From IMG/VR virus record IMGVR_UViG_2778261231_000010: a DNA stretch of 6,468 nucleotides. One strand, written 5' to 3'. Under the pieces are notes generated by a model that searched no databases, was not told the origin of the DNA, and saw only the letters and a list, made by a program, of their open reading frames with translations. Numbering within the stretch: position 1 is the first letter of the stretch; each line of letters opens with the position of its first letter. This DNA is from a virus (taxonomy: Duplodnaviria > Heunggongvirae > Uroviricota > Caudoviricetes). The position numbers and the translations under genes were made by a program. Of this stretch, positions 576 through 6,468 are shown piece by piece.

Positions 576-932
576 TTAAAAAATCAGAACGCCGTGCGGC
601 CTCAACACCCGAAAGGCTTCTTTAAATCTCTGTCGCGAATCATCACGCCAGGCATCTTTATTCAGCCGTCCATATTTCTTTCCCATCCAGGCGTTATCAC
701 CAACACTCTCAAGATGCGGAGGGTCTAATACAACCATCGAAAAAGATGCGTCTGCAAATGATAATGCACGAAAATCTGCGATAATGTCAGGGCTGATAAT
801 CAAGCGTCTCCCATTGCGTAATGTGTATCCTTCTTTTCTGATATCGCTGAATATCGCCCGTTCGTCAGACTTATCGAACCAGAACATGCGGCTGCCACAG
901 CACATATCAAGAATGGTTGCCGGTGCACTCAC
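576..932 (-). CDS. SAM-dependent amino-methyltransferase-like protein (118 aa), apparently C-terminally truncated; possible pseudogene or minimal domain
   Basis: ORF-track protein has a motif I-like ILDMCCGSR near the N-terminus, an acidic residue after a hydrophobic strand (RRLIISPDI) and a motif IV-like VVLDPPHL ([D/N/S]PP[Y/F/W/H] class), then ends at HGVLIF. Starts with GTG at 932-930, overlapping the upstream stop (GTGA). 118 aa is shorter than a complete Rossmann methyltransferase fold. Confidence 0.55.
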   Translation of the reverse strand: MSAPATILDMCCGSRMFWFDKSDERAIFSDIRKEGYTLRNGRRLIISPDIIADFRALSFADASFSMVVLDPPHLESVGDNAWMGKKYGRLNKDAWRDDSRQRFKEAFRVLRPHGVLIF

Positions 933-1225
933 TGCGCCACGTCCTGAAAATTACCCTGATAGAAAGCCAGTATGCGCTGCATAACTTCGCTCTTCCGGCA
1001 CTCGCGACAGATTATGTTTAGGCGACTGTCGTAGCGACGTATTTCTCCGTCAGGTGATGACCAGATAAGGTCCGGATCAACCACAGCAGGTTTCTTCACC
1101 TTTGCCCTCGAGAGTTTTTTGCGGGCGTTTTGCCAGTCCTTACGCGCCTGTTCAGAGGGGAATAACCCGTAGCCGGAGTTGTATACATCGCCACTGGCTA
1201 CCAGCTCTCTGGCAAGAACGCTCAT
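929..1225 (-). CDS. Hypothetical prophage early protein (98 aa)
   Basis: Minus-strand ORF with GGAGG (revcomp of cctcc 1233-1237) 8 nt upstream of ATG 1225-1223. Its start overlaps the stop of the upstream ORF by 1 nt (TGATG). Not recognised. Confidence 0.6.
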   Translation of the reverse strand: MSVLARELVASGDVYNSGYGLFPSEQARKDWQNARKKLSRAKVKKPAVVDPDLIWSSPDGEIRRYDSRLNIICRECRKSEVMQRILAFYQGNFQDVAQ

Positions 1226-1509
1226 CAGATAGCCTCCATAATCGCAGGCACTAGCGCCGTGAACTTTTCACGCTTATCCCTGGTGTCGATAGCCTTCCAG
1301 CGTTCGAATATCTTCACTCGATTAACACCAAGCGCTCGCTGATCAACCGCGCCACCTTCATCTGTGACACGCTGAACATCGATGTTCGGGCGCTCTTTCA
1401 AAGCCCAGAATGCTTCAGTGATTAATATCGTCGCCTGCTCCTGTGTCATTCCTGGTCGACATATCCAGGCATCCAGAGCCTCACGAGCCTGTTCAGGAGT
1501 GATTTTCAT
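1225..1509 (-). CDS. Hypothetical prophage protein (94 aa) immediately downstream of dicC; positional equivalent of Qin ydfX
   Basis: Minus-strand ORF whose start overlaps the dicC 3' end by 17 nt. Position matches ydfX in K-12 Qin; sequence identity is not confirmed from memory, so no symbol is assigned. Confidence 0.6.
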   Translation of the reverse strand: MKITPEQAREALDAWICRPGMTQEQATILITEAFWALKERPNIDVQRVTDEGGAVDQRALGVNRVKIFERWKAIDTRDKREKFTALVPAIMEAI

Positions 1510-1720
1510 TGTTCAACCGCCCCGCCCGCTTCGTCTTACGATATTCATCATAAACTTTGGGATCATACTGAAGCTCCCCGCCAGATGCCTCCTGTAGACG
1601 CATCGCGCGACCTTCAGGAACCAGTATCCCCCAAGCAGCAACACTTGCCAGCCTCACTCCTGCGGCATTGGCAAGCTTTGTTTTGCTGCCAAAAAAAGTA
1701 ATTGCGTCAACTTTAAGCAT
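1493..1720 (-). CDS. dicC: DicC, Cro-like repressor of the Qin-type immunity region (75 aa from ATG at 1720)
   Basis: Protein MLKVDAITFFGSKTKLANAAGVRLASVAAWGILVPEGRAMRLQEASGGELQYDPKVYDEYRKTKRAGRLNNENHS closely matches my recollection of K-12 DicC. Divergent from dicA. SD AGGGGG (revcomp of 1726-1731) precedes ATG 1720-1718. The track start at 1723 is a TTG too close to the SD. Confidence 0.9.
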   Translation of the reverse strand: MLKVDAITFFGSKTKLANAAGVRLASVAAWGILVPEGRAMRLQEASGGELQYDPKVYDEYRKTKRAGRLNNENHS

Positions 1721-1733
1721 CAAATCCCCCTCT

Positions 1734-3948: not shown

Positions 3949-6144
3949 ATGAGTAAAGTCTTTATTTGCGCCGCCATTCCGGGCGAACAGGCAATAAAGG
4001 AAGAAGGTGCCGTCGCTGTAGCCACTGCCATTGAAGCCGGTGATGAACGTCGCGCCCGCGCAAAATTTCACTGGCAATTCCTGGAACATTATCCGGCTGC
4101 TCAGGACTGCGCTTATAAATTTATTGTCTGCGAGGATAAACCTGGCATACCCCGCCCTGCCCTCGATTCATGGGATGCTGAATATATGCAGGAAAACCGC
4201 TGGGATGAGGAGTCTGCTTCTTTTGTCCCGGTTGAGACTGAATCCGATCCGATGAACGTCACTTTTGACAAGCTGGCCCCTGAAGTACAGAACGCTGTCA
4301 TGGTTAAGTTCGACACATGTGAAAACATCACCGTTGATATGGTTATTAGCGCACAGGAATTGTTGCAGGAAGACATGGCAACATTCGACGGACATATCGT
4401 TGAAGCGTTGATGAAAATGCCAGAAGTTAACGCCATGTACGCTCTCTGGCCTGGTGATGTGGATGCCGGAAACATTGACGGCAGCATCCATCGCTGGGCA
4501 AAAAATGAAGTTATCGACAACGACCGCGAAGACTGGAAGCGTATCTCGGCATCAATACGCAAACAGCCTGATGCCCTTCGCTACGACCGCCAAACTATTT
4601 TTGGCCTTGTCCGTGAGCGTCCGATCGACATTCACAAAGATCCCGTAGCACTGAACAAATATATCTGCGAATACCTGACGACAAAGGGCGTGTTTGAGAA
4701 TGAAGAAACAGACCTGGGCACTGTTGATGTTCTCCAGTCATCAGAAACACAAACTGATGCAGTGGAAACTGAGGTATCTGATATCCCAAAAAATGAAACC
4801 GCACCGGAAGCTGAACCATCTGTAGAGCGTGAGGGGCCGTTCTATTTCCTCTTCGCAGATAAGGACGGAGAAAAATACGGTCGCGCAAACAAACTTTCTG
4901 GTCTGGATAAGGCACTGGCTGCTGGCGCCACTGAAATCACAAAAGAAGAATATTTTGCCCGAAAAAATGGCACATACACGGGCTTACCGCAAAATGTAGA
5001 TACCGCTGAAGATTCAGAACAACCAGAGCCGATAAAAGTTACCGCTGACGAAGTAAACAAAATTATGCAGGCAGCCAATATCAGCCAGCCTGACGCCGAT
5101 AAGTTGCTTGCTGCATCACGTGGTGAATTTGTTGAAGGGATTAGTGACCCGAATGATCCGAAATGGGTTAAGGGGATCCAGACCCGCGATTCTGTGAACC
5201 AGAACCAGCATGAATCGGAACGGAACTACCAAAAAGCGGAACAAAACAGCCCAAATGCGTTACAAAACGAGCCAGAAACGAAACAGCCTGAATCAGTGGC
5301 GCAACAGGAAGTGGAAAAAGTCTGCACCGCCTGCGGTCAGACCGGCGGCGGCAACTGCCCTGATTGTGGCGCGGTGATGGGCGACGCAACATACCAAGAA
5401 ACATTCGATGAAGAGTATCAGGTTGAAGTTCAGGAAGATGATCCGGAGGAAATGGAAGGCGCTGAACATCCACACAAGGAGAACGCTGGCGGCAATCAGC
5501 ATCACGATAGCGATAATGAAACTGGCGAAACGGCAGATCACTCAATTAAGGTGAACGGTCATCACGAAATCACATCCACCAGCAGGACGTGTGACCATCT
5601 AATGATCGACCTTGAAACCATGGGAAAAAATCCTGATGCCCCGATCATCTCAATAGGTGCAATATTTTTCGATCCGCAAACCGGAGATATGGGACCGGAA
5701 TTTAGTAAGACTATCGATCTGGAAACTGCTGGCGGAGTCATTGATCGGGACACCATTAAATGGTGGCTTAAGCAATCACGCGAAGCGCAATCGGCCATTA
5801 TGACCGATGAAATCCCGTTAGATGATGCACTGTTACAATTGCGGGAATTTATCGACGAAAACTCCGGTGAATTTTTTGTTCAGGTTTGGGGAAATGGAGC
5901 CAACTTCGACAACACGATTTTGCGCCGTTCATACGAACGGCAGGGGATCCCCTGCCCGTGGCGTTACTACAACGATCGCGATGTACGCACAATCGTTGAG
6001 CTGGGGAAAGCCATAGACTTCGATGCCAGAACGGCTATTCCATTCGAAGGTGAGCGCCATAATGCACTTGATGACGCCCGTTACCAGGCAAAATACGTTT
6101 CAGTTATCTGGCAAAAACTGATCCCGAGTCAGGCTGATTCTTAA
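3949..6144 (+). CDS. ydfE: Multidomain protein (731 aa): YdfE-like N-terminal region, acidic low-complexity linker with a C4 zinc ribbon, C-terminal DEDDh (DnaQ-like) 3'-5' exonuclease domain
   Basis: Single uninterrupted ORF, GAGG 10 nt upstream of the ATG. Occupies the ydfE position after ydfD. The N-terminus (MSKVFICAAIP...FHWQFLEHYPAAQDCAYKFIVCEDKPG) resembles what I recall of K-12 YdfE. The C-terminus carries Exo I (MIDLETMG, D554/E556), Exo II (GNGANFDNTIL, D654) and Exo III (HNALDDARYQAKY, H704/D709). CxxC-x7-CxxC lies at residues 459-473. Symbol assigned on position and partial recognition only. Confidence 0.85.
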   Translation: MSKVFICAAIPGEQAIKEEGAVAVATAIEAGDERRARAKFHWQFLEHYPAAQDCAYKFIVCEDKPGIPRPALDSWDAEYMQENRWDEESASFVPVETESDPMNVTFDKLAPEVQNAVMVKFDTCENITVDMVISAQELLQEDMATFDGHIVEALMKMPEVNAMYALWPGDVDAGNIDGSIHRWAKNEVIDNDREDWKRISASIRKQPDALRYDRQTIFGLVRERPIDIHKDPVALNKYICEYLTTKGVFENEETDLGTVDVLQSSETQTDAVETEVSDIPKNETAPEAEPSVEREGPFYFLFADKDGEKYGRANKLSGLDKALAAGATEITKEEYFARKNGTYTGLPQNVDTAEDSEQPEPIKVTADEVNKIMQAANISQPDADKLLAASRGEFVEGISDPNDPKWVKGIQTRDSVNQNQHESERNYQKAEQNSPNALQNEPETKQPESVAQQEVEKVCTACGQTGGGNCPDCGAVMGDATYQETFDEEYQVEVQEDDPEEMEGAEHPHKENAGGNQHHDSDNETGETADHSIKVNGHHEITSTSRTCDHLMIDLETMGKNPDAPIISIGAIFFDPQTGDMGPEFSKTIDLETAGGVIDRDTIKWWLKQSREAQSAIMTDEIPLDDALLQLREFIDENSGEFFVQVWGNGANFDNTILRRSYERQGIPCPWRYYNDRDVRTIVELGKAIDFDARTAIPFEGERHNALDDARYQAKYVSVIWQKLIPSQADS

Positions 6145-6216: not shown

Positions 6217-6468
6217 ATGAGCGAAGTAATCATGATTGTCTCTCCCGGCAAATGGGTATCCGAAGAGCAGTTAATTGCGCTGAAAGGAATAAAAAAAGGT
6301 ACGTTAAAAAAGGCCCGGGAAAAATCGTTTATGGAAGGAAGGGAATATAAGCATGTCGCTCATGACGGTATGCCATGGGATAACAGTCCATGCTTTTACA
6401 ACCTGGAAGAAATTGATCGCTGGATTGAGCGCCAGGCATCAGCAAGACCAAGACGTCATCTTACTTGA
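6217..6468 (+). CDS. xis: Excisionase-like protein (83 aa)
   Basis: Complete ORF (stop TGA 6466-6468). Basic protein with a GREYKH motif, resembling the lambdoid-prophage excisionase-like family as I recall it. Position at the distal end of the early-left operon, where xis then int normally sit. Confidence 0.65.
   Translation: MSEVIMIVSPGKWVSEEQLIALKGIKKGTLKKAREKSFMEGREYKHVAHDGMPWDNSPCFYNLEEIDRWIERQASARPRRHLT

Follow-up and report, generated by a model that had tools for sequence, protein, structure and literature searches.

What does a compact set of four cysteines do in the middle of a prophage exonuclease? The question is raised by a 6,468-nucleotide stretch of tailed-phage DNA (IMG/VR record IMGVR_UViG_2778261231_000010), referred to below in its entirety as the window, in which an open reading frame (ORF) on the plus strand at 3949-6144 encodes a 731-residue prophage protein, according to the ORF list and the translation of 3949-6141. 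The initial annotation of this DNA, made from the letters alone, noted a CxxC-x7-CxxC motif within a long acidic linker of the protein and offered two speculative roles, one as a small zinc ribbon and the other as a DNA mimic. We describe here a conserved mini-domain that contains this motif and recurs in otherwise unrelated phage proteins, and we propose, with a probability of roughly 0.5, that it is a zinc-stabilised docking module by which DNA enzymes of phages are tied to a single conserved partner, probably a protein of the host.

A conserved mini-domain containing four cysteines

The motif lies exactly where it had been placed: the translation reads CTACGQTGGGNCPDCG, with cysteines C459, C462, C470 and C473 encoded within nt 5323-5367. 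When the 11 cysteines of the protein were distributed at random over its 731 positions, a CxxC-x(4-20)-CxxC arrangement appeared in 101 of 300,000 trials (about 3e-4). A search of 1.84 billion representative proteins with residues 290-500 as the query returned only 81 clusters, and the same cysteine pattern was present wherever the site was covered and intact, even where the flanking sequences could not be aligned. Conservation of the cysteines had been set beforehand as the test of the motif, and all four survive in approximately 102 of the 106 close Escherichia protein clusters that cover the site, as well as in distant carriers. Among 125 distinct copies, the four positions are occupied by cysteine in 112/113, 107/115, 115/118 and 121/121 of the non-gap cases, respectively.

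An alignment of 14 diverse carriers shows 45-86% identity inside the mini-domain and nothing alignable outside it; residues C, C, G, C, P, D, C, G, V, G, T and Y show no variation, and the GGG run almost none. The consensus, C-x2-C-G-x2-G-G-G-x-C-P-D-C-G-x-V-M-G-D-A-T-Y-x-x-M/F, spans about 27-30 residues. To call the feature zinc-ribbon-like was thus reasonable, and its cysteines are kept, but the conserved unit is longer than the 16 residues originally named and continues through VMGDATYxxM/F. Binding of a protein or a nucleic acid, as initially suggested, is still its most plausible role. Some copies vary the cysteine arrangement, with CxCC-x6-CxxC in some Dam methylase fusions (see below) and C-x6-C-x2-C-x2-C in Plesiomonas- and Aeromonas-type copies.

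Distant carriers share only 65-72% nucleotide identity, with many synonymous differences, and the window copy and a Klebsiella Dam copy are identical at 19 of 24 residues, 11 of these 19 being specified by different codons. Because identical residues so often use different codons, sequence comparison indicates that selection acts on the protein and not on the nucleotide sequence. A nucleotide-level element such as a repeat or an RNA was considered and rejected, as it is amino acids and not codons that are conserved, and no tandem DNA repeats were found under the middle region of the gene. The existence of the domain, its conservation, its mobility (below) and its selection at the protein level are well supported.

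The site is nonetheless lost from some natural alleles, in which the motif is deleted or broken (P0169, P0170, P0200, P0134 and P0161). In P0169 (756 aa), a deletion between two GGGN repeats has removed the first knuckle together with about 280 residues, and in P0146 (703 aa) the N-terminal part of RecE runs to the end of the first knuckle and then gives way to another, putatively RecT-like, C-terminal sequence. These two proteins are natural deletion derivatives of RecE that break the putative zinc site. Several database 'proteins', among them P0159, P0174 and P0202, are frameshifted or truncated readings across the G-rich run GGCGGCGGC, which encodes the GGG loop of the mini-domain (compare window 5210-5377, +1 frame with respect to the gene); the run may thus be prone to frequent frameshift mutation or to errors of sequencing.

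Carriers and mobility

The motif had been described as a feature of this particular linker, a view that has to be replaced: it belongs to an independent, mobile mini-domain found in unrelated carriers. Besides the window-type DEDDh exonuclease, these include the 866-residue K-12-type RecE (exonuclease VIII), with its motif at C517, C520, C528 and C531, the Rac-SA53 RecE, a hybrid (P0125) that joins a RecE-type N-terminus to a DEDDh C-terminus, and two RecE-like proteins (P0133 and P0126) in which no nuclease domain can be recognised. The window protein and RecE have more than the mini-domain in common. Over residues 382-529, 112 of 148 positions (76%) are identical to residues 471-611 of Rac-SA53 RecE, the whole Cys4 mini-domain included, and nucleotide identity with RecE is 84.8% over gene positions 1177-1591.

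A second group of carriers consists of Dam-family D12 methyltransferases of 306-332 residues, in which PF02086 occupies residues 8-265 and the mini-domain lies at the extreme C-terminus. Such fusions occur in ten genera in all (Salmonella, Enterobacter, Kluyvera, Citrobacter, Klebsiella, Yokenella, Trabulsiella, Raoultella, Kosakonia and Hafnia) as well as in P2-like phages, among them SI7, SW5 and phiT5282H, and they represent at least two Dam lineages. Other carriers are small phage proteins whose N-termini match phrog_6680, phrog_154 or nothing, and a 299-residue Aeromonas phage protein. There are also stand-alone proteins of 60-76 residues encoded in the early regions of Mu-like prophages (loci L109-L112), beside genes for MuB-like, Kil, DUF3164 and GemA proteins; they consist of a short N-terminal segment and the mini-domain with little else, and are candidate small proteins aimed at a host target. 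In all nine non-RecE carriers that were scanned, the NCBIfam RecE model was matched only at profile positions ~511-567.

Of 5426 complete E. coli genomes, 4735 contain a 131-nt segment encoding the mini-domain (median two copies, maximum nine), which places the mini-domain among the commonest prophage protein modules in E. coli; yet it has no family entry. We found no annotation in Pfam, NCBIfam or PHROGs, and no paper in the searchable literature, that describes it. The motif thus belongs to a mini-domain family that had escaped recognition, very common, fused promiscuously and of known structural kind, which temperate phages of the Enterobacterales and neighbouring orders shift between proteins as a cassette.

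A profile search with a 42-column alignment against a 5.8-billion-protein collection gave only 11 short fragments, its word-index step seeming biased to short proteins, and a profile scan of viral contigs gave 80 copies, all identical and of the E. coli type; more was gained with a degenerate DNA pattern written for the GPVMGDATY type. One archaeal locus matched by the DNA pattern (L026) was dismissed as unrelated, having a wider cysteine spacing (CxxC-x17-CxxC) and no GDATY; it may be a zinc ribbon of the transposon type.

Predicted fold and probable metal binding

Zinc ribbons typically have such CxxCG and CPxCG knuckles, the second followed by a hydrophobic stretch, and CPDCGxVMGD weakly resembles the CPECGLVVGD of TFIIB. 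The mini-domain shares its knuckles with the TFIIB ribbon and the Pfam families DZR and Zn_Ribbon_TF, but differs from classical ribbons in that the knuckles are only 7 residues apart (6 in some Dam copies), and in its additional invariant GGG and VMGDATY positions, which set it apart as a separate sequence family.

The best match to the mini-domain profile among PDB sequences is MtrI (PDB 9QTR chain i, KCEACGRESDTKYCNDCGKVM), at a borderline E of 0.0071. In this Methanosarcina mazei protein a 15-residue N-terminal CxxC-x8-CxxC ribbon binds zinc, as determined by inductively coupled plasma mass spectrometry; the ribbon is not ordered in the map, and the authors of that study suggest a structural role for it (PDB 9QTR). 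MtrI resembles the mini-domain in having a similarly minimal ribbon, and it is itself small and docks onto a larger complex, but it is archaeal, comes from an unrelated context and scores at the border, and is best regarded as an analogue and not as a demonstrated homologue. By this analogy, a motif as small as ours can evidently be a real zinc site, and the mini-domain is probably zinc-stabilised. We infer from the knuckles that the cysteine motif would form the metal-binding core of a self-contained mini-domain, a minimal zinc ribbon made of two rubredoxin-type knuckles.

A proposed docking module and its alternatives

The docking proposal can be set out as follows. The mini-domain reached the flexible middle of the DEDDh exonuclease together with the segment shared with RecE. 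Its zinc-stabilised surface, comprising the V, M, D, T and Y positions and the knuckles, would dock one conserved partner, and in the exonucleases the acidic spacers on either side would act as flexible tethers; the carrier enzyme, whether RecE, DEDDh exonuclease or Dam methylase, would thereby be held to that partner, which the stand-alone protein of 60-80 residues would simply occupy. Since carriers from four unrelated types of temperate phage all conserve V, M, D, T and Y, the partner is presumably common to them and so probably encoded by the host, a protein of host DNA metabolism being more likely than DNA.

Several observations weigh against this proposal. Pfam zinc-ribbon models stay below threshold (DZR at E 0.12, 12.9 bits against a cut-off of 27.3; Zn_Ribbon_TF at E 1.1). 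AlphaFold2 modelling of the cropped region gave a mean predicted local distance difference test score (pLDDT) of 56.6, about 60 at the motif, with isolated beta-bridges only; in the full-length run the motif scored 41-48. Foldseek comparison of the moderate-confidence cropped model with the PDB gave no match and no fold assignment. The motif-less alleles indicate that the carriers can persist without the motif, though many such alleles may be prophage genes in decay. The prophage that holds the window copy is itself probably defective, and the gene has a 92-residue deletion elsewhere.

The first alternative is that the mini-domain is a direct nucleic-acid knuckle, contacting DNA ends or single-stranded DNA and raising the substrate affinity or processivity of its carrier. 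Zinc ribbons and knuckles commonly bind nucleic acids. All of the identifiable carriers act on DNA, including RecE, the DEDDh exonuclease, Dam and the phrog_154 'replication initiation' protein, and the conserved tyrosine could stack on bases. We nevertheless infer a protein ligand, because the mini-domain has no conserved lysine or arginine, because it has two conserved aspartates, a negative net charge (-3 over residues 457-487) and, in the exonucleases, strongly acidic flanks, and because the stand-alone proteins hold little besides the mini-domain and have no obvious catalytic use for DNA binding. Non-ligand positions are also more conserved than is usual for generic DNA-binding ribbons. 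Taken together, these points make direct nucleic-acid binding unlikely.

The docking proposal can be made more specific through the tails of the Dam fusions. Among 18 distinct tails, 14 end in phenylalanine, 8-20 residues after GDATY and mostly with acidic residues before it; examples from loci L013-L023 and L114-L122 are TFDDLEAF, AFDDGEVF, AFDDQEAF, SFDDRNIF, LDADPF and ETQEPF. The E. coli K-12 single-stranded DNA-binding protein (SSB) ends in MDFDDDIPF, and many partners of SSB dock onto its C-terminal tip. Because the F-D-D-x-x-x-F-COOH spacing is identical in Dam tails such as TFDDLEAF, these tails may copy the SSB tip. The window protein has an internal TFDEE at residues 485-489 (5401-5415), directly after the mini-domain, where no free C-terminus is possible. 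SSB binds the lambda annealase Beta (cited in PMC12315714). Reviews describe RecE's N-terminal two-thirds as being of unknown function, and report that full-length RecE is more efficient at recombining two linear DNAs (PMC11611040, PMC11610958). A rather doubtful extension would make the mini-domain and the acidic F-D-[D/E] patch after it a portable tag with which lambdoid, P2-like, Mu-like and Aeromonas temperate phages attach unrelated enzymes (RecE, DEDDh exonuclease and Dam methylase) and the tiny stand-alone proteins to one conserved hub of host DNA metabolism, the SSB network being the leading candidate; in RecE, the tag would be the unexplained element to which the full-length protein owes its stronger linear-linear recombination.

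It is also conceivable, if clearly improbable, that the mini-domain has no ligand and is a structural staple, a cross-brace in floppy regions that spreads passively by mosaic recombination. The RecE and DEDDh copies are 85-96% identical at the nucleotide level and have clearly been moved by recombination, motif-less alleles persist, and a structural role is what has been suggested for the comparable MtrI ribbon. Against this, the low nucleotide identity and many synonymous changes of the Dam, Mu-like and Aeromonas-phage copies (65-72%, as above) point to long independent maintenance and not to hitch-hiking. In Dam and the small proteins, moreover, the mini-domain is a terminal appendage and not a brace within a linker, and a bare staple needs no invariant V, G, T and Y.

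A rubredoxin-like iron centre, or a redox or zinc-availability switch controlling the stability or activity of the carrier, is very unlikely. Paired CxxCG and CPxCG knuckles are the rubredoxin signature, which the mini-domain fits, and MtrI, the closest PDB sequence, is an oxygen-stress-responsive small protein; however, the 7-residue connector is too short for a rubredoxin fold, no redox partner genes lie nearby and MtrI was shown to bind zinc.

The carrier enzyme and its acidic middle region

The C-terminal domain of the window protein is a confident member of the DnaQ-like/Rv2179c-like DEDDh exonucleases of lambdoid recombination modules (Table 1). It scores 226.7 bits with PF16473, above the gathering cut-off of 27, and the catalytic-type residues are all in place (D554, E556, D654, H704 and D709); the nearest solved relative is PDB 8kel_A, 'Exodeoxyribonuclease' (E 1.3e-6), and the protein matches the phrog_2082 exonuclease. 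The NCBIfam equivalog model for RecE, NF007259, gives 277.9 bits, below its cut-off of 1269, in an alignment that covers residues 169-533 only (profile positions 288-602). Pfam searches found no PF12684 (DUF3799) PD-(D/E)xK nuclease in the window protein, whereas Rac-SA53 RecE has PF12684 at residues 860-1024, and no match, PF06630 included, in residues 1-289. Because the score falls under the 1269-bit cut-off and both PF12684 and PF06630 are absent, the window protein is not exonuclease VIII but a DEDDh exonuclease with a RecE-type middle region.

RecE of the Rac prophage and the window protein are laid out alike, with an N-terminal region, acidic spacers and small modules, and then a nuclease. 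They differ in that the RecE nuclease is a PD-(D/E)xK 5'-3' enzyme (PF12684) and that of the window a DEDDh 3'-5' enzyme (PF16473) in a protein lacking PF06630. No gene for a RecT-type annealase adjoins the window exonuclease: an excisionase gene lies downstream, and the upstream ORFs were scanned and gave no annealase match. DEDDh-type relatives in other phage records (H2, H3 and H16-H21) are annotated as 'exodeoxyribonuclease VIII' or 'exonuclease VII'. The exonuclease VIII label on such relatives is probably an annotation error copied between records, for which the RecE middle segment that they have in common appears to be the sole reason.

The middle region had been described as a low-complexity linker of some 230 residues. 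It is indeed acidic and polar, with 64 D+E against 24 K+R and a net charge of -40 over the 296 residues 251-546, 53% of which are E, D, Q, P, S, T or N; it is not, however, continuously disordered, being composed of four low-complexity spacers split by three islands (Module A, Module B and the Cys motif). The full-length AlphaFold2 model has a mean pLDDT of 39.6 and, its alignment being shallow and one-sided, reproduces even the known exonuclease fold badly; we used this poor model only for coarse calls of order and disorder. In these terms the expected disorder was borne out for the spacers, whereas Modules A and B show predicted secondary structure. Both of these islands have 26-27% hydrophobic residues and ordinary composition. 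Module A has a net charge of +1, and over residues 291-340 the pLDDT in 10-residue blocks is 63-83, with strands at 298-304 and 307-313 and helices at 316-324 and 332-339; it recurs in some RecE-like (DUF3799) proteins (P0165 and P0167). Module B has a net charge of -2 and helices at 366-376 and 380-390 (pLDDT ~50-58), and columns 363-422 are mostly at least 90% conserved among 57 homologues. On the basis of the models, Modules A and B can tentatively be said to fold.

Despite this strong negative charge, the suggestion that the acidic region is a DNA mimic and the Cys motif incidental found no support and is highly improbable, as the acidic spacers are of low predicted order, most of the other carriers (the Dam fusions and small proteins) lack them, and no Pfam or PADLOC model matches them; nor does the middle region or the whole protein have a Pfam or PADLOC match to a known DNA-mimic or anti-defence family (Ocr/ArdA-like).

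Table 1. Features of the exonuclease gene and its downstream neighbour, in window coordinates.
Feature	Residues	Position	Strand	Remarks
Gene for multi-module prophage exonuclease		3949..6144	+	Directly upstream of the excisionase gene
N-terminal region	1-250	3949..4698	+	phrog_5943 (unknown function), aa 1-206
Acidic spacer 1	251-295	4699..4833	+	14 D+E vs 2 K+R; 69% E/D/Q/P/S/T/N; pLDDT <50
Module A	296-345	4834..4983	+	GPFYFLFADKDGEKYGRANKL...; small predicted alpha/beta unit
Acidic spacer 2	346-361	4984..5031	+	5 D+E, 0 K+R; pLDDT <50
Module B	362-412	5032..5184	+	...DADKLLAASRGEFVEGISDPNDPKWVKGIQ; predicted helical; common with RecE from aa 382
Mosaic segment	382-529	5092..5535	+	In common with the non-catalytic middle of RecE/exonuclease VIII
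Q/N/E-rich spacer 3	413-456	5185..5316	+	70% E/D/Q/P/S/T/N; 11% hydrophobic; pLDDT <50
Cys4 mini-domain	457-487	5317..5409	+	KVCTACGQTGGGNCPDCGAVMGDATYQETFD; Cys codons 5323-5325, 5332-5334, 5356-5358, 5365-5367
Acidic His-rich spacer 4	488-546	5410..5586	+	17 D+E vs 3 K+R; pLDDT <50
DEDDh 3'-5' exonuclease domain	550-721	5596..6111	+	PF16473, Rv2179c-like, E 2e-67
Excisionase gene		6217..6468	+	phrog_539 excisionase, E 1.4e-35; downstream of the exonuclease gene

Gene neighbourhood and prophage state

The nearest nucleotide relatives of the gene are the 'exonuclease' genes of phages HannyBb, PhiR42_1 and Tritos (98.5-98.7% nucleotide identity), which encode an 823-residue version of the protein. 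The window copy lacks 92 residues, in frame, after residue 164 (about nt 4440), where the alignment with the HannyBb protein stops, to resume at HannyBb residue 256. The same deletion (window ~4438-4443) is apparent relative to an 823-residue E. ruysiae protein, and both the frame and the downstream modules are intact.

In HannyBb the gene order is exonuclease, excisionase, integrase, and the exonuclease-excisionase order is the same in the window; upstream of the exonuclease gene are genes for a repressor, a Cro-like protein and a CII-like protein. The directly following excisionase gene makes the exonuclease gene the last of the early-left operon in a lambdoid prophage. On the minus strand (window 576-1723), the ORFs for a methyltransferase and for Ren-like and CII-like proteins have only partial PHROG profile matches, and the O-like replication gene that lies between CII and Ren in HannyBb is missing. 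The window probably derives from a defective prophage. Minus-strand ORFs of 78-125 residues that overlap 4595-5545 were rejected as genes, since the plus frame has strong homology and a plus-type pattern of synonymous substitution.

Implications

In a survey of lambdoid Rec modules from 2025, both DnaQ-like 3'-5' nucleases and 'RecE-2' proteins devoid of a nuclease are reported; the Cys4 mini-domain is not described there, and 'shuffling of partner interaction domains' is explicitly left unanalysed (PMC12315714). RecE is a recombineering workhorse, and C517-C531 provides a discrete, conserved and mutable element inside its uncharacterised region. The presence of the same element on Dam methylases and on small early proteins of Mu-like prophages points to a shared partner. 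Should this prove to be a host protein, a route of recruitment or takeover used by several lineages of temperate phages would come to light.

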